Source of the DNA: Candidatus Multivorans sp.
GTDB lineage: Bacteria > Acidobacteriota > Thermoanaerobaculia > Multivoradales > Multivoraceae
Direction of reading: 5' to 3'
DNA length: 64,000 nucleotides
Assembly (NCBI GenBank): GCA_965219675.1
Contig: OZ244786.1
Location: 3,674,597-3,738,596 of the forward strand
Shown: in pieces, positions 11,321-62,120 of the stretch
How the letters are laid out: each line of letters starts with the position of its first letter
Position numbering within the stretch: the stretch's first letter is position 1
Notes under the pieces: model-generated
Database searches by the model: none
Told to the model about the DNA's origin: nothing
What the model saw: only the letters and a program-made list of their open reading frames with translations
Made by a program: the position numbers and the translations under genes

Positions 11321-14300
11321 ATGTTGCCCCGAAGGTCCATCCTCGTCGCACCCGTGTTGGCTATGGCGCTCGTCACCGTTGCCCACGGACAACGGCTTCT
11401 GACGCTTGGTCCCGAGGTGGATGAGGCCCCGGCTCTTGGGGAACCGGTAGCGGTTTCCTCCAGGGCGGCGATGGGAAGTCGGCCGCACATCGTGCAGGTG
11501 GACTTGGACCTGGTTCGCTCAGCGCCACGCTGGCTCGAGTTGCCGACGCCGGACGGCCGGGTGCTGACGGCGGAACTGAGCGCGTTTGAGGACCGCGGTG
11601 ACGGTGACGTGATGTGGTCGGGGAGGTCTCCCGACGCCCTCCACGACAGCGTCGTTCTGAGCATCGCCGGCGGCGGGCTCGGCGGCCATTTCGGTGAACC
11701 GATGGGCGCGAAGTACCGGATCGGCGCGGAAGCCGATGGCAGGGGCAGAATGGTCGATGCGCGGCCTGCTCCGGGTCAGCTGACGGAGTTGTCCTGCGGA
11801 CTTGGCGTGGCGACCGGTGACCGGCTACACGAGCATCTCGCGGACCTGCTACCGCCGGGCGGGCCGTATCTCGGCGGGCCGCGGTCGGTAGCTGGTTCCC
11901 AGAGCCACGAGGAACTGAAGATCCTGGTCCTCTATACACTGTCCGCCGAGCGGACCTGGAGAGATCCGAACTGGCATTCCTACGCCGGGGGCAGGGCGGC
12001 GACCCTCCAACTGGCGGCCGACTACCTAGCCATGGTGTTCAGGAACGGTCGGCTGGGATTGGAGCCAAACGTCGTCTTCAAGAGGGCGCCGGCGTGGCTC
12101 GACAGGGTCGGTACCAAGGCAGTCAGTCACTGGGAAAGCGACCTGTTCAACAGGTTCGACGGCAGCACCGAAGTCGCGATGCTTCGCCGCCAGTACGGCG
12201 CAGACCAAGTGCATCTGTTCTACGGCCATGGCGTGCGCGTTCTCGAATACGGCGGGCGAGCCCAACTCTACGGCACACAGCCGTCACGTTGTTGGGCCTG
12301 CCGCATATCTTCGCGCATGAAACGGGCCACAACCTGGGCGGTACCCACCAGCCAAGTGTGGTCGGAGCACCTTCTCTGGCGCAAAGAAAGGCTGAGATTC
12401 TGGTCCAGGGCTGGGGTGACTGGGCCAACTACGCGTTCGCTCATGGTTGGCGCAAGAATGGTGCAGCCACCTCCGATGGCGAGTTTCCTCCGCAAGGTAC
12501 TGCCCTCACAGTAGCGTCGGTGCGCGAACCGTACTACTCAAGCGTTCGAATCAACCCTGGTGGCCGACAGATCGGAATCGCCGGCGAACGGGAGAACGAA
12601 CGTGCCCTGCAGGAGACGGTGCACCATCGGGCCGCACAGAGCGCCCGCGATGGGCAGAGTCCGTTGCCGCCGTCCGATGTGCACGTAGAGGTCACGGGAG
12701 CTTCGGCGCGGGCAACGTGGGAGGACCGGTCCACGGACGAAGCAGGCTTTCTTCTGATCCTGACTTCCCTTCGGAACGGCGAGCAAGTGCGCGCAGACCG
12801 TCTACCGACCGGCACAGAATCCGCGATCCTCGCCGGTCTGGAGCCCGGTCGGTACGTGATCAGGCTGTACAGTCACTATGCGAGTCATGGCCTGCGAACG
12901 GGGATCTCTGAACCGGTGTCGACGTCCTTCCTCGTTTCCGGCGCGGAGCCGTCGGCACCGTCGAACGTCAAGGTTGCCTTGGACGACAGTAACCCGTTTT
13001 GCCGCCAGGCCACGGCCACCTGGACTGAGCACTTCCGTTCCGAGGAGAAGGAAAGCGCCTCGTCCTGGTCGGAGGTAAGGGTCTATCTGGACGACAGGCT
13101 CCACCGGAGGCACTTTGTTCGGGCTGGCACCGGGTCCCTGTCGTTCGGGCCTTCACAGTTTCCGTTTGACTGCGTCGAAGACGGGATCTACGGCTTTCGC
13201 GTGTACGCCCACAGCTTCGGCGGTCGCTCGCAGGGCAGCGACACGGTAACGGTCGAGGGGCCACGGGGCGGACCGCCGGCGGCAGGTTTCGACCTCTCCC
13301 TCGACTGCGACGAGGATCTCTGTATCGCGTGGACAGGTGTGCCGGTGAAGTTCGAGAACGAAAGCAGCGGGACGGTCGAGCACGTCCGCTGGGACTTCGG
13401 CGATGGCATGACTTCGCCGGAGCGGAAACCAAGCTACACCTGGACCACCCCCGGCTTTTTCCGTGTTGTGCTGACGGCCTACGGCGACGGCCAGAGGTCA
13501 ACCGTGAGCCGAGACATTCTGGTTCGCTCGAGTGATCCGGCGGGAACCTGCGAGCCGGACCTGGAGACGCTTTGCCTCAGGGATTCACGGTACACGGTGC
13601 AAGCCGAGTGGTCGAGGGGCGACAGTAAGCGCGGCCCGGCGAGCGTGGCCTACGCGGGGACGAACGATTCGGGTGTGTTCTGGTTCTTTGGGCGAGAGAA
13701 CTGGGAGATGTTGATCAAGGTACTTGACGGCTGCGCGGTAAACGGGAACGTATGGGTGTTCGGCGCCTCGACTACAGACCTTGGCTACTCGATCAAAGTG
13801 ACGGATACCGTCACAGGCCGGAGGCGGGAGTATCGCAACGAGCCTGGCAAGCCCGCGCCCGCGATCACGGACACCGACGCGTTCACCGGGGGGTGCGGCG
13901 ACAGCGCGGGAGTCGCCGCTCAGCCCGTGACGTTCACCGGCGAAGCGGCGGACGAGGAACCATGGGACAACTGGCTTCCAAGGCAGTCAATCTGGGCGGG
14001 GACCCAGGTGGGCCAGGCGTCACACGATGCCTGCGCGGACGCGCGGTGGGCTCTCTGCCCTCAGGATGGCCGCTATGAGGTGGTGGTCTGGTGGCGAACC
14101 ACGCGGAACGGTGCCTACACCTTGGCCCGGCGCGCTCCCGCCCGCACGAGGGATTCCGGTCTGTACTCCTTCTTCGATGAGGACAACTGGGAGATGCTGA
14201 TCAAGGTGCTGGACGGTTGCGCGGTGAACGGGCAGCACTGGGTGTACGCGGCGTCTGCAACCGACCTAGGTTTCCAGATCCGGGTGACGGATACAGAGAC

Positions 14301-15767: not shown

Positions 15768-15843
<76 letters not shown>

Positions 15844-16529: not shown

Positions 16530-16629
16530 GGAAGCGCTCGGGGGCTGGTGCCTCCTGCGGTCTTCAAAACCGTTGTCCGGGGCGTGATGCGTCTCCGGGG
16601 GTGGGTTCGATTCCCATGCGCTTCCGCCA
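16530..16629 (+). tRNA. selC: tRNA-Sec (selenocysteine, anticodon UCA)
   Basis: 8-bp acceptor stem GGAAGCGC/GCGCTTCC, 6-bp D-stem with 4-nt loop, anticodon loop CTTCAAA (UCA), long variable arm, T-arm GTGGGTTCGATTCCCAT, discriminator G + CCA. Confidence 0.8.
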
Positions 16630-16744
16630 CCGGCGACCGGGTCTTCACAAGTCGCTGGTCCGGGGCGTGATGCGTCTCCGGGGGTGGGTTCGATTCCCAT
16701 GCGCTTCCGCCACGGGCGACCGGGTCTTCACCAGTCGCTCGTCC
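16579..16744 (+). repeat. tandem duplication (2 x 83 bp) of tRNA-Sec 3' part (variable arm to CCA) plus a 30-nt downstream hairpin
   Basis: Unit 16579-16661 repeated at 16662-16744 with 2 substitutions; GTCC microhomology at junctions. Confidence 0.75.
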
Positions 16745-16750
16745 GTGCCG

Positions 16751-40310: not shown

Positions 40311-40542
40311 GGTGCCGGCCTTCGGCCGGCCGCATCCTGGCCGCCTGCGGCGGCAGCCGGCGGGGACGCCGGCGCACCCGGTAGAGATGCCGGCCGAAGG
40401 CCGGCCGTATCCTGGCCGCCTTCGGCGGCAGCCGGCGAGGACGCCGGCGCACCCGGTAGAGGTGCCGGCCTTCGGCCGGCCCGTATCCTGGCCGCCTTCG
40501 GCGGCAAGCCGGCGAGGACGCCGGCGCACCCAGAGAACGACC
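40311..40542 (+). repeat. tandem array of 3 x 75-bp REP units (contain GTAG tetranucleotide)
   Basis: tgccggccgaaggccggccgtatcctggccgccttcggcggcagccggcggggacgccggcgcacccggtagagg repeated. Confidence 0.8.
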
Positions 40543-40562: not shown

Positions 40563-41300
40563 TACTCCAAGTCACCGCTCGCAGCGACGTCCTGACGGCT
40601 GCAGAAGAGAAGCACGCCCCACCGACCATCGCTCGCTGGGTGCGCCGGCGTCCTCGCCGGCTGCCGCCACAGGCGGCCAAAACCAACGCGCCGGCCGAAG
40701 GCCGGCTCCGCTCACCACTCGCAGCGACGTCCTGACGGCTGCAGAAGAGAAGCACACCCCGCCGACTATCGCTCGCTGGGTGCGCCGGCGTCCTCGCCGG
40801 CTTGCCGCCGCAGGCGGCCAAGACCAACGCGCCGGCCGAAAGGCCGGCTCCGCTCACCGCTCGCAGCGACGTCCTGACGGCTGCAGAAGGAAAGCACGCC
40901 CCACCGACCATCGCTCGCTGGGTGCGCCGGCGTCCTCGCCGGCTGCCGCCGCAGGCGGCCAAAACCAACGCGCCGGCCGAAGGCCGGCTCCGCTCACCGC
41001 TCCCAGCGACGTCGTGACGGCTGCTGAAGAGAAACACGCCCCACCGACCATCGCTCGCTGGGTGCGCCGGCGTCCTCGCCGGCTGCCGCCGCAGGCGGCC
41101 AAAACCAACGCGCCGGCCGAAAGGCCGGCTCCGCTCACCGCTCCCCAGCGACGCCCTGACGGCTGCAGAAGAGAAGCACGCCCCACCGACCATCGCTCGC
41201 TGGGTGCGCCGGCGTCCCCGCCGGCTGCCGCCACTGGCGGCCAAAACCAACGCGCCGGCCGAAAGGCCGGCTCCACTACCTCCGCTCCCCCGCCGCCCCC
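40563..41300 (+). repeat. tandem array of ~5.5 x 141-bp units (REP core + ~95-bp spacer with two further hairpins)
   Basis: ctgggtgcgcc recurs at 40636, 40776, 40918, 41058, 41200. Confidence 0.85.
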
Positions 41301-46589: not shown

Positions 46590-47362
46590 GCCAGGCTACC
46601 CCACCCGGTACACCGACCTCCCCACCGGGTGCACAGACCTCCCCACCGGGTGCGCCGGCGTCCCCGCCGGGTGCACAGACCTCCCCACTGGGTGCACAGA
46701 CCTCCCCACTGGGTGCGCCGGCGTCCCCGCCGGCACCAGGCGCGCAGCCGCGAAGCGGCGCGCGCGAACCGTCGACACCCGCCCCCCTGATCCTCGCCTC
46801 CGCCTCCCCCCGCCGCCGCGAGCTCCTCGCCTCCCTCGACCTCGACTTCACCGTCCGCCCCGCCACCGTCGACGAGACCCCGAACCCCGGCGAACGGCCC
46901 CGCGACCTCGTGCGGCGCCTCGCCCGCGAGAAAGCCGAGGCCCAGGCCGAGGACGGCGAATGGGTGCTGGCCGCCGACACGATCGTGGTCACCGAAGGCG
47001 AAGTCCTGGGCAAGCCCTCCGACCGGACCGAAGCCCGCTCCATGCTTGGACGCCTCCAGGGCCGCTGGCACCTCGTCCTCACCGGCGTCGCCCTCCGGCC
47101 GCCAGACGGCGACACACTCCACGCCGTCGAGAGCACCCGGGTCCTGTTCGCCGAACTGACCCCTGAGCAGATCGACTGGTACGCCGAGACCGGCGAGCCT
47201 GACGACAAGGCCGGCGCCTACGCCGTCCAGGGCCTGGGCAGCCTCTTCATCCTCGAGATCGACGGCAACTACAGCAACGTCGTCGGCTTGCCGCTACCAA
47301 CGGTGCGGCAGTTGTTCGAGGGGGCCGGGAGTGACGTCAGGGCCTTTCGACGACGAAGGTAG
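46586..47362 (+). CDS. maf: Maf-like nucleoside triphosphate pyrophosphatase (start uncertain: GTG 46586 overlapping upstream stop, or near 46787)
   Basis: LILASASPRRRELL Maf N-terminal signature and C-terminal Maf motifs. Confidence 0.6.
   Translation: MSQATPPGTPTSPPGAQTSPPGAPASPPGAQTSPLGAQTSPLGAPASPPAPGAQPRSGAREPSTPAPLILASASPRRRELLASLDLDFTVRPATVDETPNPGERPRDLVRRLAREKAEAQAEDGEWVLAADTIVVTEGEVLGKPSDRTEARSMLGRLQGRWHLVLTGVALRPPDGDTLHAVESTRVLFAELTPEQIDWYAETGEPDDKAGAYAVQGLGSLFILEIDGNYSNVVGLPLPTVRQLFEGAGSDVRAFRRRR
46600..46740 (+). repeat. tandem 21-bp repeats (~7 copies) derived from REP 5' core
   Basis: cccac(c/t)gggtgc(a/g)c... units; period 21 = 7 codons. Confidence 0.7.
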
Positions 47363-53577: not shown

Positions 53578-54617
53578 TCGACCGGGAACGGGTTGCCGCC
53601 CGGCGCCAGCTCGACGCCCTGGCTGGACGGCGTCACGGCCGAGCAGACCACCGTGAAGCTCACCTCCACGCCGTCCGTGGGGAGACCGGGGATGACTTCG
53701 TCCGCGCTCGCGACTTCCACGGTCACGGTCTGCTCATTCAGGCGATCCGGGTTCGTGCTCGCGCAGCGGTTCGCGTCCGAGGCGACGGTGACGGTCCACT
53801 CGAGAACGCCGGGCTCGTCCATCGCGGGCGGCGCGCCGCTCACGGCACTGAGCGCCACCCCCGCCACACTGCCGTGAATGTCGAGGTCGGCCGTCGCGGC
53901 GACCGTGCCCGTGGTGATGAACCTCGCCCCGGTCAAGGTCACGGTCACTTCCACGTCCGGGTCGCCGCCCGTCGGCCGGGTGAACGAGGACGTGGGCGTC
54001 CTCAGGACCCAGCCGTCCGGGGACCCGAGGACGCAGTCTACCGCCGTGTCGCTGCCGGCGGCGCCGCTACAGTCGGGCACCGGCTTGCGCGGCACGATGT
54101 GCGGGATGATCCCGACCCGGCCGCTCGGCTCGTGCTTCGCGAAGGTCGCCGCGCCGCCTTCCACCGACTTCAGGACGACTCCGCCCGGGTCGGTGGGAGT
54201 CACCCGCGGGTGACCCAGCGAGTCCTTGCGGATCAGCGCGGTGACGGCCGAGTTCGTGTCGTCGTTGATCCAGTACCAGCCGCCGTCCTTCAGGCCGTCG
54301 ATCTCGATCGTGCCGCCGCTTGCGGCCTGACAGGCGAAGCCGTTCTCCACGGTCAGCGCCTGCCGCACGACGCCCGCGCTGTCCGGCATCGCGGTGCCTC
54401 GCGTCGTCACGTTGCCGCAGGTGACGATGAAGGTCACCTCGCTCTCGTCCGTGGTGGTCGTCGGGTCGTCCACGCGGGCCGCATCGCCCACGAATCCGCC
54501 GGTGCCCTCGTAGTAGGGCGCGAGCTGGCAGTTCGCTCCCTCACAGGCGGCGCTCTGGCCCGAGAGCAGCGCGGGGAACGCGACGATCAGGATTGCGGTT
54601 GGAATGACTTGCTTCAC
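53574..54617 (-). CDS. secreted hypothetical protein, paralog A (conserved N-terminal DGGWYWIND domain)
   Basis: GTG start with AAGGAGA RBS; signal peptide VIPTAILIVAFPALLSG; shares ~170-aa N-domain with 54814..56436. Confidence 0.5.
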   Translation of the reverse strand: MKQVIPTAILIVAFPALLSGQSAACEGANCQLAPYYEGTGGFVGDAARVDDPTTTTDESEVTFIVTCGNVTTRGTAMPDSAGVVRQALTVENGFACQAASGGTIEIDGLKDGGWYWINDDTNSAVTALIRKDSLGHPRVTPTDPGGVVLKSVEGGAATFAKHEPSGRVGIIPHIVPRKPVPDCSGAAGSDTAVDCVLGSPDGWVLRTPTSSFTRPTGGDPDVEVTVTLTGARFITTGTVAATADLDIHGSVAGVALSAVSGAPPAMDEPGVLEWTVTVASDANRCASTNPDRLNEQTVTVEVASADEVIPGLPTDGVEVSFTVVCSAVTPSSQGVELAPGGNPFPVD

Positions 54618-54813
54618 GGCTCTCTCCTTCCGCGGCCCGCCGGCCGCCGTTCGAAGCGGATGCGGCTCCAGGGCCGCATATAGCACAACTGCTATATCAC
54701 ACTCGCTGCCAAGAAAGAGAAACGGCCCGCCGAGGCAGAACCTCGACGGGCCGAGAAAGGTGATTGGCGGAGCGGAAGTAAGCCTTGCCTACGCCACCAC
54801 CACCCAGGTTTCC

Positions 54814-56436
54814 CTATTCTTCAAGGGCGCAGTGCACCTGCAACGCCGTCGAGGCATTCAGGCCGTTCGTCCAATGGCCCGGCCTCACGGTCTGAGCAAT
54901 CATCGGAGTCGTGTCGTTCACACTCTGGGCCGAGTAGGCCAGGATGTAGACCAACGCCGTCCGGTTGTTGTTCCGGTTGCAGAACGTCGTAGTCGGCGAG
55001 ATGTCGAGGGTCGCACCCACGTACCGCGTCGTCGAATCTCCAGGCGTCGTCGCGCAGACGACGGCAGGAAGTTCGTGGTCACCGTCGTCCAGACTCTCAT
55101 CCGTGTCCGGGGTCGCCGGATCGTTACCGATCGTGCCGTCGGTACCACCGTGACGCACGGTGACGGTCTTGATCTTCTTCGCGCGATCAACAGTCCCGTC
55201 ATTGTGAGTCTCTACCCAAGTGTCCAGATCCGCCAGTGTAGCGCCCGCATCAGGGCCTGCGTCGGCCATGTTGATCTCCACGGGATCGTCGCCACTCTGA
55301 GCAACGAACTGGAGGTACATGGTCTCCGCTCCACCGGCAGGAGTGAACGTGCGGACATTCTGCATGCACTGCGGCTTGCCGTCAGCGCTGTCCTTGTAGA
55401 AGCCGTCCTCGCGGGCCTTGGTGGCGGAGTCGTCACCGGTTTCAGGTGCCGCGACCAGCTTAGGGGCACCAGGCACCGTCATCATTCCGCCCTCATTGAG
55501 GTGGACTCCCGCATCGGCCAAGTTGGTGCCCAGGCTGCCATCGGCCGACAGGGATGCAACGAATGTCGCCTGGAAGGGCGCCGGCTTCACCGGATACCAG
55601 GAAGGAACCGACAGGTTCCCCCATCCGAGGTGGGGGTTGGCACCAGTCGCGATATGACCCGAGCCGTTCGCCCAGAGATCGAGAGCGATTTCGACATCGC
55701 TGCCGCCACCGGGATTCCGGTGGACGCTGGTCACCTGGTTCGAACGTCCATCGGACGTCATGCTCGTCATCACGATGGTCGTGCCACCGTCACCCAGCAT
55801 GCAGTCGCTGTCGTTCGCGTAGTAGACCTCGTCGTCCGCGTCCCACTCGGGCATGCAGACAGTGGCCGCCTCCGGCTCAGGAACCGGCGGGATCTCGACC
55901 GGCGCGGTCGGGACGAAGTGGGGAAGAATTCCCACTCGACCGGAACCGTGCTTGACGTAGGTGCCATAGTCGCCCGATGTCAGGGTCACGCCGCCCGGAT
56001 CGGTCGGCATGACCTCGTCTCCCGCGAGCGCATCCTTGGCGATCAGGGGAGAAACGGCCGAGTTCATCGAGTCGTTGATCCAGTACCAGCCGCCGTCGGC
56101 GAGGCCGTGAATCTGAATCGAGCCGCCCTCGTCGAGGCAGGCAAGGCCGTTGGCCATGCTGAACAGCTCCCTGACGACACCATCGCTGTCGCCCGCGGCA
56201 CTGCCGCTGGCCGTGGTGTTGCCGCAGGACACGACGAAGTTGGCCATGTCGAAGCCGTCGGCCAGTTCGCCGACGAATCCGCCCTCGCCCATGAAGACAG
56301 GCGCCACGTGGCACTCGTCATCCGGGCAAGCGACATCGACCTTCGCCGGATCGACGACAACGCCGAACTGGCCGAAGGCCGCGAGAGGAATCGCGCAAAG
56401 GAAGAGCGCGATCGTGATGTGCTTCATCAGCTTCAT
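54814..56436 (-). CDS. secreted hypothetical protein, paralog B
   Basis: MKLMKHITIALFLCAIPLAAFG signal peptide; AAGGAG RBS; N-domain homologous to paralog A; lower local GC. Confidence 0.5.
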   Translation of the reverse strand: MKLMKHITIALFLCAIPLAAFGQFGVVVDPAKVDVACPDDECHVAPVFMGEGGFVGELADGFDMANFVVSCGNTTASGSAAGDSDGVVRELFSMANGLACLDEGGSIQIHGLADGGWYWINDSMNSAVSPLIAKDALAGDEVMPTDPGGVTLTSGDYGTYVKHGSGRVGILPHFVPTAPVEIPPVPEPEAATVCMPEWDADDEVYYANDSDCMLGDGGTTIVMTSMTSDGRSNQVTSVHRNPGGGSDVEIALDLWANGSGHIATGANPHLGWGNLSVPSWYPVKPAPFQATFVASLSADGSLGTNLADAGVHLNEGGMMTVPGAPKLVAAPETGDDSATKAREDGFYKDSADGKPQCMQNVRTFTPAGGAETMYLQFVAQSGDDPVEINMADAGPDAGATLADLDTWVETHNDGTVDRAKKIKTVTVRHGGTDGTIGNDPATPDTDESLDDGDHELPAVVCATTPGDSTTRYVGATLDISPTTTFCNRNNNRTALVYILAYSAQSVNDTTPMIAQTVRPGHWTNGLNASTALQVHCALEE

Positions 56437-56902
56437 CAGTTGGTTTTCTCCTTGAGCGGCTTTGCGCCGCCGTTCGTTTGGCCGAACCGGCCGTATGCCG
56501 GCCCGGCAGTTCTTTGATCCGAAGATCAGGTCGCAACGGTGCGGATGACCCGCTTTGTCGCGACCCCTGACGTTCTCTCTGCTGACGGCAACCGGCTCGT
56601 GCGAGCCGTCAACCGCCAACTTCGCTGATGCTGCGCATCACCTCCCGCTAAAAGACTTCAAGGCCGTCTGTCCAAGACGTGAGGGAACTTTAGCCGAAAC
56701 GACGGTGAAGATCCAGTGATGCCGAGGCCGTAGCCAAGTGGGCACAAAGGGATCAGGAAGCGCCGTTCCAACCGAAATCAGTTCCTCCGAAGCTCGACAC
56801 TATAGGGCCTTCGAGGGGATTCGTCAAGGGGCGGGTGTGTGAGAGTCAAATTATTGAGGGGATTGGGGTTATGGGCGGCGGCCGGATGCTGGCCGGAGGG
56901 CG

Positions 56903-59113
56903 GTGCGGGCGGTGGCGGGATGCACCCCGTGGCTGGTATCGTCGCTCGCTGCGATGGACGGTCTCGGAGCTTCGATCCTGACCCCGATGCCGGCCGGACG
57001 GCCGGCGCAGCCAGTGACCGGATATCGGCCCGAGGGAACGCGTCTCGACCGGATGATCGCCGCGGCGACGGGCAGGCTGCTCGAGGAGCAGCGGCCCGAC
57101 GGCCACTGGTGCGCCGAGCTCGAAGGCGACACGATCCTGGAGTCGGAGTACGTGCTCCTGCTCCACTTTCTGGGGCGCGGCGACGACCCTCGCGTCCGGG
57201 CCTGCTGCGAACGGCTGCGGAACACGCGGCTCGGGACGGGCGGCTGGTCGATTTATCCGGGCGGGCCGGCGGACGTCAGCGCTTCGGTCAAGGCGTACCT
57301 GTGCCTGAAGATCGCGGGAGACGACGTGGAGTCGCCGCCGATGGCCGCGGCGCGGCGCGCGATCGTGGAGGCCGGCGGCCTGGGCGCCTGCAACTCGTAC
57401 ACGAAGCTGCTGCTCGCGGTCTTCGGGTTGTGGCGCTGGCGCGACGCGCCGGCAGTGCCGCCGGAGATCGTGCTGTTGCCGCGGTGGTTCTACTTCAACC
57501 TGGATGAGATGTCGGCGTGGACGCGGGCGATTGTGGTGCCGCTGTCGGTGGTTTGGGCGTTGAAGCCGGGCGTGGAGGTGGAGGTGGGGTTGGAGGAGTT
57601 GCGGGGTGGCGGCCGGATGCCGGCGGGGACGCCGGCGCACCCAGTGGCGGACCGCGCCTGGTCGGTGGTCTTTGGTGGGGTGGACAGGTTGATCAAGTTC
57701 GTGGAGAGGGTCGGGCCGGTGCCGGGGTGGCGGCGGCGGGCTCTCGAGGAGGCGGAGGCCTGGATGACGCCTCGGCTGGGGGGAGACGATGGCCTGGGGG
57801 CGATCTTTCCGGCGATCGTGAACGCGGTCATGGCGCTCAGGGCCCTAGGGTACGAGGAGGATCATCCCCTGGTCCAGGGCCAACTGCGGGCGCTCGAGCG
57901 GTTCGAGATCGAGGACGCGAGCGGGAAAGCGGCGGAGATGAGGCTCCAGCCGTGTCTCTCCCCGGTCTGGGACACCGCGCTGTCGATGAACGCGCTCCTC
58001 GCGTCGGACGGGGATGGCGAGGCGGCGGCGCTGCAGCACGGCCTGCGGTGGCTGCTCGACCGCGAAGTGACCGCGCCGGGAGACTGGCAGCGAAAGAGCC
58101 TGCAGCAGGCGCCGGGCGGCTGGTGCTTCGAGTACGGCAACGACTTCTACCCGGACTGCGACGACACCGCCGAGGTCCTGGCCGTGCTGGCCGGGCTCAG
58201 GGGCGAGAACGAGGAGCTGGAGTGGCGGCGGCAGGCCGCCGTGTCCCGCGGCCTGCGCTGGCTGCGCGGCATGCAGAACCCGGACGGCGGCTGGGCCGCG
58301 TTCGACCGCCGCTGCGACAAGGAGATCCTGACCCGCATCCCGTTCGCGGATCACAACGCGATGATCGACCCGAGCACCGCGGACATCACGGCGCGCGCCG
58401 TCTGCGCCCTGCTCGCGCACGGCGGCGACCGCTCGGATGCCGCGGTCCGGCGCGGGGTGGAGTTCCTGCTGCGGATGCAGGAGAGCGACGGGAGCTGGTA
58501 CGGCCGCTGGGGCGCGAACTACGTCTACGGAACCTGGCTCGCGCTGGCCGCGCTGTCGCAGGTCGGCGGCGCCGGCGGCACCGGCGAGGCGGACGAGCGG
58601 CTCCCGCGCGCGATGCGGGCGGGGCGCGACTGGCTGCTCGGAGTCCAGAACGCGGACGGCGGATGGGGCGAGTCGCTGCACTCGTACGCGGATGCGAACG
58701 CGAAGGGGCAAGGCCGGAGCACGGCGTCCCAGACCGCCTGGGCGATGCTCGGGTTGATCGCGGCGGCCGGTCCGGGGGCCGCGGCGGGAGAGCGGAGCGC
58801 GGTCGGCGCGGCGCTCGAGCGGGCGGTCGGATTTCTGGGTGAGCGGCAGGGGCCGGATGGCGGCTGGGAGGATCGGGAGTGGACGGGGGTCGGCTTCCCG
58901 CGGGTGTTCTATCTTCGGTACCACGGCTATGGGGTCTACTTTCCGTTGGAGGCACTGGCGGGGTATCGGGAGTGGAGCCGGATGCCGGCGGGGACGCCGG
59001 CGCACCCAGTGGCGGAGCGGATGCCGGCGGGGACGCCGGCGCACCCGGTGGCGGAGCGGATGCCGGCGGGGACGCCGGCGCACCCAGTGGTGGGGCACAC
59101 GGTTCCTTCTTGA
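56903..59113 (+). CDS. shc: squalene-hopene cyclase (alternative starts at 56954 or 56987; carries in-frame REP insertions and a REP-encoded C-terminal tail)
   Basis: DCDDTAEV (DxDD) class-II terpene cyclase motif, multiple QW repeats, N-terminal alignment to SHC (LDR...EYVLLLHFL). Confidence 0.8.
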   Translation: MRAVAGCTPWLVSSLAAMDGLGASILTPMPAGRPAQPVTGYRPEGTRLDRMIAAATGRLLEEQRPDGHWCAELEGDTILESEYVLLLHFLGRGDDPRVRACCERLRNTRLGTGGWSIYPGGPADVSASVKAYLCLKIAGDDVESPPMAAARRAIVEAGGLGACNSYTKLLLAVFGLWRWRDAPAVPPEIVLLPRWFYFNLDEMSAWTRAIVVPLSVVWALKPGVEVEVGLEELRGGGRMPAGTPAHPVADRAWSVVFGGVDRLIKFVERVGPVPGWRRRALEEAEAWMTPRLGGDDGLGAIFPAIVNAVMALRALGYEEDHPLVQGQLRALERFEIEDASGKAAEMRLQPCLSPVWDTALSMNALLASDGDGEAAALQHGLRWLLDREVTAPGDWQRKSLQQAPGGWCFEYGNDFYPDCDDTAEVLAVLAGLRGENEELEWRRQAAVSRGLRWLRGMQNPDGGWAAFDRRCDKEILTRIPFADHNAMIDPSTADITARAVCALLAHGGDRSDAAVRRGVEFLLRMQESDGSWYGRWGANYVYGTWLALAALSQVGGAGGTGEADERLPRAMRAGRDWLLGVQNADGGWGESLHSYADANAKGQGRSTASQTAWAMLGLIAAAGPGAAAGERSAVGAALERAVGFLGERQGPDGGWEDREWTGVGFPRVFYLRYHGYGVYFPLEALAGYREWSRMPAGTPAHPVAERMPAGTPAHPVAERMPAGTPAHPVVGHTVPS
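57609..57647 (-). repeat. REP element inserted in-frame within shc
   Basis: ggcggccggatgccggcggggacgccggcgcacccagtg encoding GGRMPAGTPAHPV. Confidence 0.75.
58978..59094 (-). repeat. 3 tandem 39-bp REP units forming the 3' end of the shc ORF
   Basis: ggatgccggcggggacgccggcgcacccagtggcggagc x3, encoding RMPAGTPAHPVAE x3. Confidence 0.8.
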
Positions 59114-60121
59114 GTGGATATGAGAACGCCGCTTCATCTTGTGGTCGACAACCTGGTGCTCCAGGCGCGGAACGCGCTGCGGGGCAGGAAGAGGTACCCG
59201 TTCGTGCTGATGCTCGAACCGCTGTACACGTGCAACCTGGCCTGCATCGGCTGCTCCGTGGAGCGGCATACCGGGAAGCTCAAGGACCGGATGGCGGTGG
59301 CGGACTGTCTCGACGCGGTCGAGGTCACCGAGGCGCCCGTCGTCTCCATCTGCGGCGGCGAGCCGACGATCTACCCCGAGCTTCCGGAGCTCGTCGCGGG
59401 CATCATCGCCCGGCGCCGGCACATCTACCTCTGCACGAACGCCCTGCTGCTCGACACGAAGGTCTTCGGCCGCGTGCCCCCGCACCGCCGCCTGACGCTG
59501 AACGTCCACCTCGACGGGATGCGCGAAACCCACGACTATGTCTGCGCGCGCGAGGGCGTGTTCGACAAGGCGGTCGAGATGATCCGGGCCGCGAAGGAGC
59601 TCGGCTACCGCGTGAGCACGAACACGACCGTGTTCAAGGAGACGCGGATCGAGGAGGTCGAGGAGCTCTGCGGCTTCCTGCGCGATCTGGACGTCGACGG
59701 GATGCTCATCTCGCCCGGCTACCAGTACGAGTCGGTCGACCGGGACATCTTCCTCACCCGGCAGGACTCGCAGGACAAGTTCCTGCGCATCCTCGAGATC
59801 GCCGACGAGTACAAGCTGACTTCGACGCCCATGTACCTCGAGTTCGCCGCCGGAATCCGGGACTACTCCTGCTCTCCCTGGAGCACGGTGACCAGGACGC
59901 CGCTCGGCTGGAAGGGGCCGTGCTACCTCATCGCCAAGCGCTACTACCCGACCTTCGAGGAGTTCTGGGACGAGACGGACTGGGACTACTGGGAATCCCG
60001 CGAGGATCCGCTGTGCGCGAACTGCGCGATGCACTCGGGCTTCGAGGCCTCCGCGGTGCGCGAGGCGAACCGGAACCCGCGGGACCTCGCGCGGCTCGCG
60101 GCCTGGCAACTCTCGGGTTGA
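59114..60121 (+). CDS. hpnH: hopanoid biosynthesis radical SAM protein HpnH (adenosylhopane synthase)
   Basis: CNLACIGC radical-SAM cluster motif; HpnH family length; follows shc. Confidence 0.85.
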   Translation: MDMRTPLHLVVDNLVLQARNALRGRKRYPFVLMLEPLYTCNLACIGCSVERHTGKLKDRMAVADCLDAVEVTEAPVVSICGGEPTIYPELPELVAGIIARRRHIYLCTNALLLDTKVFGRVPPHRRLTLNVHLDGMRETHDYVCAREGVFDKAVEMIRAAKELGYRVSTNTTVFKETRIEEVEELCGFLRDLDVDGMLISPGYQYESVDRDIFLTRQDSQDKFLRILEIADEYKLTSTPMYLEFAAGIRDYSCSPWSTVTRTPLGWKGPCYLIAKRYYPTFEEFWDETDWDYWESREDPLCANCAMHSGFEASAVREANRNPRDLARLAAWQLSG

Positions 60122-60155: not shown

Positions 60156-61154
60156 GTGACCGCCCTGGTCACCGGCGGCACGGGCTTCGTCGGCGCCCAC
60201 GTCGTCCGCGCGCTGCTGGAGCGCGGCGCGGGCCCGGTTCGCTGCCTGGTGCGCCCCGCCAGCGACCGCTCGAACCTCGAAGGCCTCGACGTGGACCTGG
60301 CGCGGGGCGACCTCCGCGATCCGGAGAGTCTCGCGGCGGCCTGCCGGGGCTGCGAGGAGGTCTACCACTGCGCGGCGGACTACCGGCTCTTCGCCCGCGA
60401 CCCCTCCGGGATCCACGCCTCGAACACGGGCGGGACCCGCAATCTGCTGGCGGCCGCCCGGGGCGCCGGGGTTCGGCGGATCGTCTACACGAGTTCCGTC
60501 GCGGCGCTCGGGCTGGAACCGGGCGGAGAGCCGGCCGACGAGACGACCCCGGTCGATCCAGCGAAGATCGTCGGCCACTACAAGCGGAGCAAGTACGACG
60601 CGGAGCGGGTGGCCGAGCAGGCCGCCGCGGACGGCGCGCCGGTGGTTATCGTGAACCCGTCGACGCCGGTCGGCGAACTGGACGTGAAACCGACGCCGAC
60701 CGGGCGGATCATCGTGGACTTCCTGAACGGCCGGATGCCGGCCTGGGTCGATACGGGCCTGAACGTCGTCGACGTCCGCGACGTGGCGCAGGGCCATCTC
60801 CTGGCGGCGGAGCGGGGTCGCGTGGGCGAGAAGTACATCCTGGGCAACCGCAACGTGACGCTCCGCGAGCTGCTCCAGTTGCTGGCGGAGATCACCGGCC
60901 GGCGGGCGCCGCGGCTGCGCCTGCCGCACTGGCTCCCGATTGCCGTCGCGGCCGTCGACACGGGCCGGGCCCGGTGGTTCGGCGGCGAGCCCCGCGTACC
61001 GCTCGAGAGCGCCCGGATGGCGCGGAAGAAGATGTTCTTCGACGCCGGCAAGGCGGTGCGGGAGCTGGGGTTGCCGCAGAGCCCGGTGGAGGAGGCGCTG
61101 CGGCGGGCGGTGGGGTGGTTTGAGGGGAATGGGTATGTGGCCGCTTCGCGTTGA
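60156..61154 (+). CDS. hpnA: hopanoid-associated sugar epimerase HpnA (NAD-dependent epimerase/dehydratase)
   Basis: GTG start; VTGGTGFVGAHV Rossmann motif; YxxxK SDR catalytic region. Confidence 0.75.
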   Translation: MTALVTGGTGFVGAHVVRALLERGAGPVRCLVRPASDRSNLEGLDVDLARGDLRDPESLAAACRGCEEVYHCAADYRLFARDPSGIHASNTGGTRNLLAAARGAGVRRIVYTSSVAALGLEPGGEPADETTPVDPAKIVGHYKRSKYDAERVAEQAAADGAPVVIVNPSTPVGELDVKPTPTGRIIVDFLNGRMPAWVDTGLNVVDVRDVAQGHLLAAERGRVGEKYILGNRNVTLRELLQLLAEITGRRAPRLRLPHWLPIAVAAVDTGRARWFGGEPRVPLESARMARKKMFFDAGKAVRELGLPQSPVEEALRRAVGWFEGNGYVAASR

Positions 61155-61167
61155 CGCACCGGGTCCG

Positions 61168-61337
61168 CCACTGGGTGCGCCGGCCTTCTGGCCGGCATCC
61201 GGACTGGGTGCGCCGGCGTCCCCGCCGGCTGCCGCCGAAGGCGGCCAGAAAGACGGGCCGACCGAAGGTCGGCATCCGCTTCAATTCCGGCGCACCTCCC
61301 CCGGAAGCCGGCGGGGACGCCGGCGCACCCAGTGGCG
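61168..61337 (+). repeat. composite MITE-like REP element
   Basis: Forward REP cores at 61168 and 61204, inverted REP at 61300-61337. Confidence 0.8.
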
Positions 61338-61343
61338 GACCCC

Positions 61344-62120
61344 GTGACGACGGTCTATCTGGCGGCGATGCGGTTCGAGGTCGGGGCGCTGATGCGCCGC
61401 GTGGAGGGTGCGCGGAAAGCCCGGGACACGGGGCTCGGGAGAACGGTGTCGGGCTCCATCGGAGGCCGGCCGGTGCTGGTCGCCGTGTCGGGAGTCGGAG
61501 CGCGGGCGGCCCGAACGGCCGCCGAGGCCTGCGTGGACCTCGCCCGCCAGGGTCGGTGCAGCCGCGTCGTCTGGCTCGGCATTGCCGGCGCGCTGTCGCC
61601 AGGGCTGCGAGTGGGCGACCTGGTCGTCGCCACGAGCGTCACGGCCGCGGAAGAGCGACACTGGGTGCGCCGGCGTCCCCGCCGGCATCCGGACGCCGCC
61701 CCACAACCGATCGCCCTGGACCGGGATCTCGCCACCTCCGCAGTCTCCGCCGGCTGCGCCGAAGCAGTCGTCGTCTCGACGTCGAGGCCCGTCGTCACCC
61801 CGGACCAGCGCCAGCGCCTATGGCAACAGGCCGGCTCGCCCGACCGTGCCGCGGTCGACATGGAGAGCTATGAAGCCGCCCGAGTCTTCCACGCCGCCGG
61901 CCTGCCGTTCGCCGTCGTCCGTGCGGTCAGCGACACCGCGGAGGACGACCTGCCCATGGCCCTCACGGACGCGGTGACGGCTGAAGGTGGAATCTCGACC
62001 CCGAGGCTCGCCTTCGCCCTGCTGCGGCGGCCGCGGGCCGCGCTTCCGCTGGCGGCGGTTCGATTTCTGGCGGCCCGTTCCGCCAGGGTCCTGGCCGGCG
62101 CCGCGGCGGCGCTCGCCTGA
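61344..62120 (+). CDS. hpnG: hopanoid-associated phosphorylase HpnG (PNP/MTA-nucleosidase family), with in-frame REP insertion
   Basis: GTG start VTTVYLAAMRFEV; nucleoside phosphorylase fold motifs; REP at 61659-61692 in frame. Confidence 0.7.
   Translation: MTTVYLAAMRFEVGALMRRVEGARKARDTGLGRTVSGSIGGRPVLVAVSGVGARAARTAAEACVDLARQGRCSRVVWLGIAGALSPGLRVGDLVVATSVTAAEERHWVRRRPRRHPDAAPQPIALDRDLATSAVSAGCAEAVVVSTSRPVVTPDQRQRLWQQAGSPDRAAVDMESYEAARVFHAAGLPFAVVRAVSDTAEDDLPMALTDAVTAEGGISTPRLAFALLRRPRAALPLAAVRFLAARSARVLAGAAAALA
61659..61692 (+). repeat. REP element inserted in-frame within hpnG
   Basis: cactgggtgcgccggcgtccccgccggcatccgg encoding HWVRRRPRRHP. Confidence 0.75.

Follow-up and report, generated by a model that had tools for sequence, protein, structure and literature searches.

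Five copies of a short, GC-rich and very abundant palindromic repeat (REP) lie in the squalene-hopene cyclase gene (shc) of this genome from an uncultured acidobacterial lineage, all in one orientation and one frame: one at the 5' end, one in a hypervariable loop and three in tandem at the 3' end. A sequence-only reading of this DNA had proposed that REPs are read in frame in the variable loop and the C-terminal tail, in the manner of the Rickettsia palindromic elements (RPE), and this is borne out, because at the DNA level the segments are the dispersed repeat, which neither the sister clade nor any of more than 60 other orthologues carries. Our analysis confirms that the REPs in shc, and in the nearby hpnG gene, are real, and that they are a further example of a phenomenon already described for Rickettsia RPEs and for the GTAG/CGTC-tagged REPs of several phyla. 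In our judgement it is likely that a lineage-specific REP established itself at permissive sites in the hopanoid operon, by an ancestral acquisition with continued turnover, and that the encoded peptide is a passenger. That the REP segments are translated we infer from their open frame.

Apart from its repeats, shc is an intact squalene-hopene cyclase gene. Its open reading frame (56903-59113, plus strand; 736 aa) is uninterrupted in the window, by which we mean the whole stretch of 64,000 nucleotides analysed here. The product matches Pfam SQHop_cyclase_N and SQHop_cyclase_C, scores 624.7 bits against NCBIfam TIGR01507 (squalene--hopene cyclase; cut-off 431.1) and carries its DXDD motif as DCDDTA, which aligns with DVDDTA of 1GSZ. 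The AlphaFold2 model (pLDDT 86.4) has Foldseek TM scores of 0.92-0.93 to 2SQC/3SQC; TIGR01507 score, DXDD motif and the predicted two-domain alpha-alpha barrel fold all fit a squalene-hopene cyclase. Where translation starts is less certain. Candidates are GTG 56903, ATG 56954, ATG 56987, which indeed lies inside the N-terminal REP as had been noted, and ATG 57053, the NCBI call; we take 56954-59113 as the coding sequence. ATG 56954 and the preceding ~20 nt do not vary among eight orthologous loci and the sequence further upstream is unrelated, which favours a start upstream of the N-terminal REP. The NCBI protein (P0001, 686 aa) has M51 as its first residue, past that REP, so translation of this particular copy is uncertain.

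The N-terminal REP (56984-57016, plus strand) had been described as a REP-like segment at 56980-57012. It is in fact a true REP of the minor variant (CCGATG-GCCGGCC-GGAC-GGCCGGC-GCAGCCAGTG), orthologous to a perfect REP in locus L003, and encodes PMPAGRPAQPV if the start is 56954 or 56987. The loop REP is, as claimed, a 39-nt in-frame unit in a variable loop, located at 57614-57652 (plus strand; hairpin 57619-57636) and thus ~5 nt from the 57609-57647 first given; it encodes RMPAGTPAHPVAD. The C-terminal tail (58979-59095, plus strand) consists of three tandem 39-nt units (58979-59017, 59018-59056 and 59057-59095) encoding RMPAGTPAHPVAE x3, followed by GHTVPS and the stop TGA (59111-59113), so that the REPs make up the last ~45 codons of shc. 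The threefold repetition had been recognised from the sequence, and Tandem Repeats Finder likewise reports 3.0 copies (58974-59090, period 39, 96% matches). Every whole unit in shc measures 39 nt, and the unit is free of stops in all six frames, as had been asserted for the REP core; this holds across unit junctions too. Predicted tryptic peptides from these segments are MPAGTPAHPVAER for the tail and MPAGTPAHPVADR for the loop.

Low confidence or coil in the AlphaFold2 model falls exactly on the REP-coded parts, which are accordingly predicted to be unstructured or disordered. Residues 1-23 and 685-719 have pLDDT below 50, and the loop, in a block of pLDDT ~70, is modelled as coil with no secondary structure. 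It aligns with residues ~195-217 of A. acidocaldarius SHC, ahead of a helix; no residue-level statement on its position with respect to the face of SHC that binds the membrane was found in the literature. The idea that the segments are insertions on surface loops or termini agrees with the coil and disorder predicted there, but needs correction for the loop, in which the REP replaces the native hypervariable sequence rather than lengthening it (16 aa here vs a modal 14 aa in orthologues).

What kind of element is this? Its conserved unit is a GC-rich palindrome of 33 nt, CGGAW-GCCGGCG-GGGA-CGCCGGC-GCACCCAGTG (consensus from 201 copies), composed of a hairpin, whose stem has 7 G+C base pairs and whose loop has 4 nt, and of a conserved, asymmetric 3' tail of 10 nt, GCACCCAGTG; with units of 33-39 nt the G+C content is ~85%. 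The four nucleotides flanking the stem read GTGC (minus strand) or GGAW (plus strand). At stem position 7, 159 copies have G/C, 55 have C/G and none has a non-complementary pair, even with a search pattern that permitted mismatch; the minor stem variant is GCCGGCC-GGAC-GGCCGGC with the tail GCAGCCAGTG. A related long, three-hairpin form of ~100 nt has the arms of the REP (7-8-bp inverted arms identical to its stem) enclosing two more hairpins, and folds to -72 kcal/mol (z = -4.8). The 28-nt core matches the window 28 times at up to three mismatches, with none expected from shuffles; exact hairpin cores number 29, and all copies, degenerate ones included, 35, at a density of ~0.5-0.55 per kb across the window. 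They occur in both orientations and in their majority outside genes, the intragenic copies being those of shc and hpnG only. By its short consensus, stem-loop core and many dispersed, mostly extragenic copies the element is a REP in the broad sense.

The repeat was found in Thermoanaerobaculia-type acidobacterial MAGs only. No Rfam family matches the short or the ~100-nt form, and no RAYT/TIRYT transposase was found among the ORFs between inverted REP pairs in loci L001-L112 and the window (~0.98 Mb). A profile of the tandem REP peptide gave three matches, all with E > 1, in a set of 5.8 billion proteins, low-complexity matches having probably been removed by composition correction; an exact 24-nt junction pattern gave none in metagenome contigs.

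The hopanoid operon around shc is dense in REPs, with ~10 copies in 5.2 kb. The stop of shc was said to abut hpnH (adenosyl-hopene transferase; 59120-60121, plus strand; TIGR03470, 382.8 bits, cut-off 225). The genes are adjacent, but a 6-nt spacer separates the stop from ATG 59120 (ATGAGAACGCCGCTTCAT), the start conserved in six of six loci, GTG 59114 being merely the first possible one. Next follows hpnA (hopanoid-associated sugar epimerase; 60156-61154, plus strand; TIGR03466, 477.4 bits), free of REPs in the window and with a long-element tail in L002. Between hpnA and hpnG lie two adjacent REPs on the minus strand (61168-61246), the first of the C/G variant, the second of the G/C variant and equipped with an additional hairpin, GCCGCC-GAAG-GCGGC, and a further intergenic REP on the plus strand (61298-61340) directly upstream of hpnG, where it overlaps the first possible start, GTG 61332. 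The hpnG gene itself (61332-62120, plus strand; true start possibly ATG 61369) belongs to the PNP_UDP_1 nucleosidase family, and its orthologues in L001-L005 carry PF01048. Inside it, a REP in reverse orientation (61659-61692, minus strand) is in frame and reads HWVRRRPRRHP; the L005 orthologue lacks this copy, L001 has one unit and L003 two. The in-frame copy in hpnG was missing from the sequence-only reading.

Orthologues show how the arrangement varies. REP-bearing SHCs are monophyletic in 95 of 100 neighbour-joining bootstraps and form a subclade of Thermoanaerobaculia made up of 'Ca. Multivorans'-like MAGs; three relatives (L113, L114 and L116) were obtained by a protein-based scan of metagenome contigs. 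All nine subclade orthologues, seen at the DNA or protein level, carry the repeat in the same Shc loop, as one or two units, partial units or a ~100-nt element. Frame and residues vary as well, the REP-coded sequences being PAGTPA, PARRPA, SRPEGRRTQW (one unit in another frame, in L114) or a long-element peptide. No REP occurs in the sister clade (P0008-P0010) or in more than 60 other SHC orthologues, whose loops are plain and mostly 14 aa long, and 22 kb of the sister locus L005 are free of REPs. At the N-terminal site a perfect REP is present in L003 and L116 and none in L002, L114 and L005; relatives without it have an N-terminal MPAxAPPTAVW and a GCCGCC-AAC-GGCGG hairpin at the same place, which might be a decayed REP. 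The tail has three units in the window and one in L001, with identical flanks, is of the long form in L002, and lacks a REP in L003, L113 and P0005; in L003 the stop of shc and the ATG of hpnH overlap.

It had been reasoned beforehand that peptide segments shared with orthologues would be ancestral protein sequence. Close relatives do carry REP peptides at the same sites, but they differ in copy number, in frame and in stem variant, and some lack the N-terminal or the tail copy; the segments are not ancestral SHC sequence. Other proteins of the relatives also contain in-frame REPs, namely an S9 peptidase (at up to four sites), a GT2 glycosyltransferase, a sarcosine-oxidase-alpha-like (SoxA-like) protein and the tail of HpnA, and together with hpnG they use all six frames; the count in other loci is a lower bound, as the GC3-based coding filter missed hpnG.

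The copies in shc carry the stem variant that dominates in their own genome, the ratio of G/C to C/G being 28:4 in the window, 1:5 in L001 and 0:8 in L003, where the numbers for L001, L003 and L114 each derive from just 8-22 kb. Because this concordance comes with compensatory changes from G/C to C/G, it argues that the repeat is maintained by DNA copying and not by selection on the peptide. The loop unit and the first tail unit of the window agree at every one of 38 nt. Between window and L001, shc differs at 15% of its four-fold degenerate sites, and by our own estimate identity over 38 nt under independent drift would have a probability of ~0.002 (0.85^38). The REP segments appear to be selectively near-neutral and homogenised by copying.

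How might the repeat have come to reside in these genes? We envision that it was acquired in the common ancestor of one Thermoanaerobaculia subclade and settled in permissive sites: the 5' end of shc, its hypervariable surface loop, its 3' end beside hpnH, and one internal site of hpnG. Because the REP is stop-free in every frame and comes in 39-nt units, frame-keeping insertions and gains of units leave the gene intact, and the repeat would be translated as a short, disordered decoration rich in Pro, Ala and Arg, the peptide being carried along as a passenger. Copies would then keep turning over, with units gained and lost (from one to three in the tail) and short and long forms exchanged, and the stem-loop would repeatedly be overwritten by the genome's dominant variant through gene conversion or re-insertion. 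A bolder version, to which we would assign a small probability, holds that the intragenic sites are persistent 'landing pads' that outlast speciation, are overwritten by whichever variant is active and have in part been domesticated, with REP-borne ATGs (CGGATGCCGGC) serving as shc or hpnG starts and stop-free arrays preserving or tuning the translational coupling of shc and hpnH. If so, a selfish repeat family would shape the expression and the termini of hopanoid biosynthesis enzymes.

Alternatively, the operon's repeats may be kept as DNA or RNA elements that stabilise mRNA, make ribosomes pause, set shc/hpnH coupling or stoichiometry, or bind nucleoid- or gyrase-type proteins, with the peptide as a by-product. 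We consider this improbable. The REP found in the same loop throughout the subclade, its conserved hairpin and the compensatory changes that preserve the stem would suit such a role, but covariation is expected equally from variants that spread by copying. As RNA, the three-unit tail array folds to -79 kcal/mol (z = -4.0) right before the hpnH start; yet several relatives do without a tail REP (L003, L113 and P0005) or without the N-terminal copy (L002 and L114), so that neither site is required. The operon's REP density exceeds the ~0.55 per kb of the window as a whole, and for published REPs roles in mRNA stability and in supercoiling have been suggested (PMC3733652; PMC12306157); against this, copy number, spacing and form vary freely, and the repeat is also found in unrelated genes and in both orientations.

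It is far less probable still that the Pro/Ala/Arg-rich peptides are selected features of Shc, for example basic flexible segments by which a monotopic membrane enzyme binds the membrane or a partner, and that their likeness at the DNA level is secondary. The native loop of other orthologues is itself basic and variable, so a REP peptide could substitute for it, and the five shc copies of the window share orientation and frame. However, in orthologues this DNA is read in other frames and into other residues, other proteins use all six frames, changes from one orthologue to the next compensate each other in the DNA stem and are not conservative in the protein, and the segments are predicted to be disordered. 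Equally hard to credit is a read-through that is partly an effect of annotation or assembly, with the N-terminal REP belonging to a 5' UTR and the tail arising from misassembly of a repeat array: P0001 begins past the N-terminal REP, the upstream REPs of L113 contain in-frame stops and are untranslated there, and assemblies are error-prone at tandem repeats, but the loop copy is internal and must be in the protein, the tail frame is open with the same flanks in the window and in independent assemblies (L001 and L114 from JGI, L002 and L004 from ENA), and ATG 56954 with its upstream ~20 nt is invariant.

Colonisation by a repeat with a passenger peptide remains our preferred reading. The finding brings 'protein-coding palindromes' to Acidobacteriota, here Thermoanaerobaculia ('Ca. 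Multivorans'-like MAGs), and to a membrane enzyme whose structure is well understood. The related genomes form a natural series, in which units number from one to three, short forms occur beside long ones, frames differ, and copies at the two termini are present or absent. Such a series suits two questions: how a selfish repeat gets into coding sequence and stays there, and how much disordered insertion a class II terpene cyclase can bear. A practical corollary is that gene callers will, in these genomes, misplace starts and yield odd N- and C-terminal extensions where a stop-free REP abuts a gene.

How does the element relate to known systems? MITEs and small mobile sequences of enterobacteria carry ORFs and occur within genes (Delihas 2007; review PMC10969869). 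The acidobacterial REP shares with them the in-frame fusion of a small non-autonomous repeat with host ORFs and, in its ~100-nt form, inverted terminal arms. Its short form, however, is far below the typical MITE size (70-300 bp), and in the loci compared we saw neither a recognisable target-site duplication at REP insertions nor a parent insertion sequence.

Closer in form are the GTAG- and CGTC-tagged REPs, a minority of which lie in ORFs as single units, dimers or clusters that code for 20-80 aa (Di Nocera et al. 2013; PMC3733652). Both are short stem-loops with stem and loop variants, mostly extragenic, with N- and C-terminal cases and with hosts of high GC content, among them Opitutus terrae and Thauera. 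As intragenic REPs are known from these two, from Thioalkalivibrio, Xanthomonas and others (PMC3733652), the novelty that the sequence-only reading saw in a high-GC lineage is weaker than claimed. In place of a GTAG or CGTC tetranucleotide beside the stem, the acidobacterial element has GTGC on the minus strand, which shares three of four bases with GTAG, and from this resemblance the two may be distantly related. The asymmetric 10-nt tail and the ~100-nt three-hairpin form set it apart. The GTAG/CGTC survey did not report Acidobacteriota with intragenic REPs and highlighted genes of DNA replication and repair (PMC3733652), whereas the class affected here is hopanoid biosynthesis.

The Rickettsia elements offer the nearest parallel in behaviour. 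RPEs are found in frame in unrelated and apparently functional enzyme genes (Ogata et al. 2000, 2002, as summarised in PMC10969869 and PMC3733652). The acidobacterial REP differs from them in being mostly intergenic, and its decorated proteins are predicted from open frames. Classic RPE-1 measures ~100-150 bp, against 33-39 nt at ~85% G+C here, and the sequences are unrelated; the host of RPEs is an obligate intracellular alpha-proteobacterium (Rickettsia or Wolbachia), that of the REP a high-GC acidobacterial lineage, free-living or host-associated. Common to both is a dispersed palindrome that sits in frame in unrelated enzyme genes, some of them hit several times, at sites compatible with the fold, which in Shc are a loop predicted as coil and termini of low pLDDT. 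The acidobacterial REP thus works like an RPE and is not a member of the RPE family.

The open reading frame shc at 56903..59113 (+ strand, 736 open codons) encodes a squalene-hopene cyclase. Its product matches both the N- and the C-terminal Pfam cyclase domains, scores 624.7 bits against NCBIfam TIGR01507 (cut-off 431.1) and carries a DXDD motif (DCDDTA) that aligns with that of the A. acidocaldarius enzyme; hpnH (TIGR03470), hpnA (TIGR03466) and a PNP_UDP_1-family hpnG follow in this order. The dispersed REP palindrome occurs in the gene, on the + strand, as one unit in a loop (57614-57652), as three 39-bp units in the C-terminal tail (58979-59095), which Tandem Repeats Finder scores as 3.0 copies with 96% matches, and as a minor stem variant near the N-terminus (56984-57016), which contains an ATG. 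All three sites had been picked out by the sequence-only reading and are real, and its statement that the unit lacks stop codons is borne out, with zero in all six frames. Its account of in-frame REPs in shc proves essentially right, the observation being correct.

Are these segments ancestral cyclase sequence? The closest orthologues, which come from independent assemblies and are 75-92% identical (loci L001-L004, L113, L114 and L116), hold the same repeat in the same loop at the DNA level, in an arrangement that differs per locus: one unit, two, a unit plus a partial one, or a longer element (about 100 nt). The sister orthologues P0008-P0010 (about 80% identity) have no REP, and over 60 other acidobacterial orthologues have none either; the loop of these proteins is hypervariable, basic and mostly 14 residues long. 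The window loop has only 16 residues, the REP effectively substituting for the native loop. On a tree from 626 well-aligned columns, REP-bearing cyclases are monophyletic (95/100 bootstraps) with P0008-P0010 as their sister, and the simplest history would be a single loop acquisition in the ancestor of the subclade. The tail varies too: L001 has one unit between the flanks (…GYREWS / H(P/T)VPS*) that enclose three in the window, L002 has a long form, and in L114 one and a half units are accompanied by a change of frame. In L003, L113 and the orthologue P0005 the tail REP is absent and the protein ends …YRR; the shc stop codon of L003 overlaps the hpnH ATG. At the N-terminal site, L003 and L116 have a perfect REP, the window and L001 a degenerate one, and L004 a copy read in another frame; L002, L114 and the sister-clade locus L005 lack the REP and share a different sequence there. 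This is the kind of presence and absence that the earlier reading called for, found here across orthologues, and it shows that the segments are not ancestral.

An AlphaFold2 model of the cyclase that starts at M18 and draws on 76 aligned sequences has a mean pLDDT of 86.4 and a pTM of 0.88. Residues 1-23 and 685-719 fall below a pLDDT of 50; the loop is modelled as coil (block mean pLDDT about 70) directly ahead of a long helix and aligns with roughly residues 195-217 in the A. acidocaldarius enzyme, a stretch that is itself Arg/Gly-rich. Outside these parts the model superposes on 2SQC and 3SQC (target-normalised TM 0.92-0.93).

Where does the protein begin? The NCBI call is 57053, and P0001, the identical protein in public data, accordingly starts at M51, tail included. 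The ATG at 56954 and the roughly 20 nt ahead of it are invariant across eight loci, with unrelated sequence further upstream, which favours a start at 56954 over downstream ones and would place the N-terminal REP within the protein. The conserved block GGCTGnTATCGTnGCnCGCTGCnATGG (56934-56956), shared by the window, L001-L005, L114 and L116 and ending in this ATG, could be a -10-like element with a near-leaderless shc start. A search of the + strand for a sigma-70-type promoter found none. Just upstream, 54604-56619 is lower in G+C (0.65), with syntenic neighbours that vary among related loci, and contains a 601-aa reading frame (54814..56619, - strand) that has a hydrophobic stretch at its N-terminus and is not obviously related to the hopanoid genes.

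What is being conserved at these sites? The stem comes in two variants, GCCGGCG…CGCCGGC and GCCGGCC…GGCCGGC. Among 214 copies, stem position 7 is a G/C pair in 159, a C/G pair in 55 and non-complementary in none, although the collection pattern permitted any combination. Genomes are dominated by one variant (G/C to C/G, 28:4 in the window, 0:8 in L003, 1:5 in L001), and the shc loop and tail copies match the local one, so that the encoded peptide reads PAGTPA in the window and PARRPA in L001 and L003. Although L001 is a sister lineage of the window with REPs in the same positions, an identical four-base change, compensatory pair included, separates the two at both sites. Within the window, the loop unit matches the first of the tail units over 38 identical nt; between L001 and the window, 15% of four-fold degenerate shc sites differ, and by our own estimate the chance of 38 nt untouched by independent drift is 0.85^38, or about 0.002. 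One loop unit of L114 is read in frame +1 (SRPEGRRTQW). Local-variant matching, the 38-nt identity and this change of reading frame together argue that the conserved object is a DNA element, not a peptide, with gene conversion or re-insertion probably renewing the copies in shc.

Decoration extends to a second gene of the same operon, hpnG (61332 or 61369, two candidate starts, to 62120, + strand), which carries a REP in reverse orientation (61659-61692, - strand) read as HWVRRRPRRHP. L005 lacks this REP, L001 has a single copy and L003 has two. In relatives, in-frame copies also occur in an S9 peptidase (two sites in L001, up to four in L004, none in L005), a GT2 glycosyltransferase, a sarcosine-oxidase-alpha-like protein, the HpnA tail and several further long reading frames; over these proteins and hpnG, all six frames are used. 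L004 has six tandem 39-bp units between hpnH and hpnG (13383-13607). Its called hpnG start is the ATG of the last unit, and that of L003 is likewise REP-borne, which makes gene starts called next to the repeat unreliable.

In the window (about 70% G+C), a 28-nt REP core has 28 matches at up to 3 mismatches, versus 0 in shuffles; exact hairpin cores number 29, and copies 35 with degenerate ones included. Across 201 copies from the window and related genomes the 33-nt consensus is CGGAW-GCCGGCG-GGGA-CGCCGGC-GCACCCAGTG. Many intergenic copies add a second hairpin, GCCGCC-TTCG-GGCGGC, with array periods of 36, 39, 69, 75 and 142 bp. Large intergenic arrays of REP plus this hairpin (GCCGCC-TTCG/GAAG-GGCGGC) lie at 37533-37797, 40313-40531 and 40572-41274, with periods of 69 bp (3.8 copies), 75 bp (2.9) and 142 bp (5). 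A tandem repeat of the 21-bp unit CCCCACCGGGTGCACAGACCT (46599-46733, 5.6 copies) leads into a REP, and the unit resembles the REP tail CCACTGGGTGC, as if only the tail had been amplified. Elsewhere, a tRNA-SeC gene (16530-16629) is followed directly, within 16530-16745, by a copy of its 3' part, from the variable arm through the T arm to the acceptor end, in an 83-bp tandem duplication (2.1 copies, 96% identity). It resembles the remnant of an attachment-site duplication, with no island separating the copies; tRNA-Ala is encoded at 15768-15843.

The element of about 100 nt, of which the window holds no copy, has REP-arm ends that enclose two further strong hairpins, GGTGGCGCG…CGCGCCACC and GTCCGTGCGCCCG…CGGGCGCACGGA (fold -72 kcal/mol, z = -4.8). 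It occurs at L001 9846-9950, L002 10620-10720, 12085-12190 and 14375-14480, L003 4310-4420, L004 10705-10810 and 18230-18340, and L006 6560-6670, intergenically and in-frame in shc, hpnA and the S9 peptidase; in the shc of L002 and L004 it takes up the loop, the tail or, as in L002, the two together. Neither the short nor this longer form matches any Rfam family. The repeat was seen only in Thermoanaerobaculia-type MAGs, 'Candidatus Multivorans' (Acidobacteriota) among them, isolate names suggest that the samples may have been sponge- or coral-associated, and the 22-kb L005 locus has zero copies.

No description of REPs from this lineage was found in the literature searched. Our analysis adds a second decorated gene, a comparative orthologue series, evidence for homogenisation by copying, and the literature context. 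It is established that the Rickettsia RPEs, which are palindromic repeats, lie in-frame within genes, and GTAG- and CGTC-tagged REPs are likewise found in-frame in genes of several phyla, high-GC hosts included, at terminal locations and in intragenic clusters that encode up to 82 residues (PMC3733652; review PMC10969869). The REP described here resembles both in its working, as a palindromic repeat carried in-frame within genes, but it is unrelated to RPEs in sequence and, with GTGC as the four nucleotides next to the stem, falls outside both the GTAG and the CGTC super-family.
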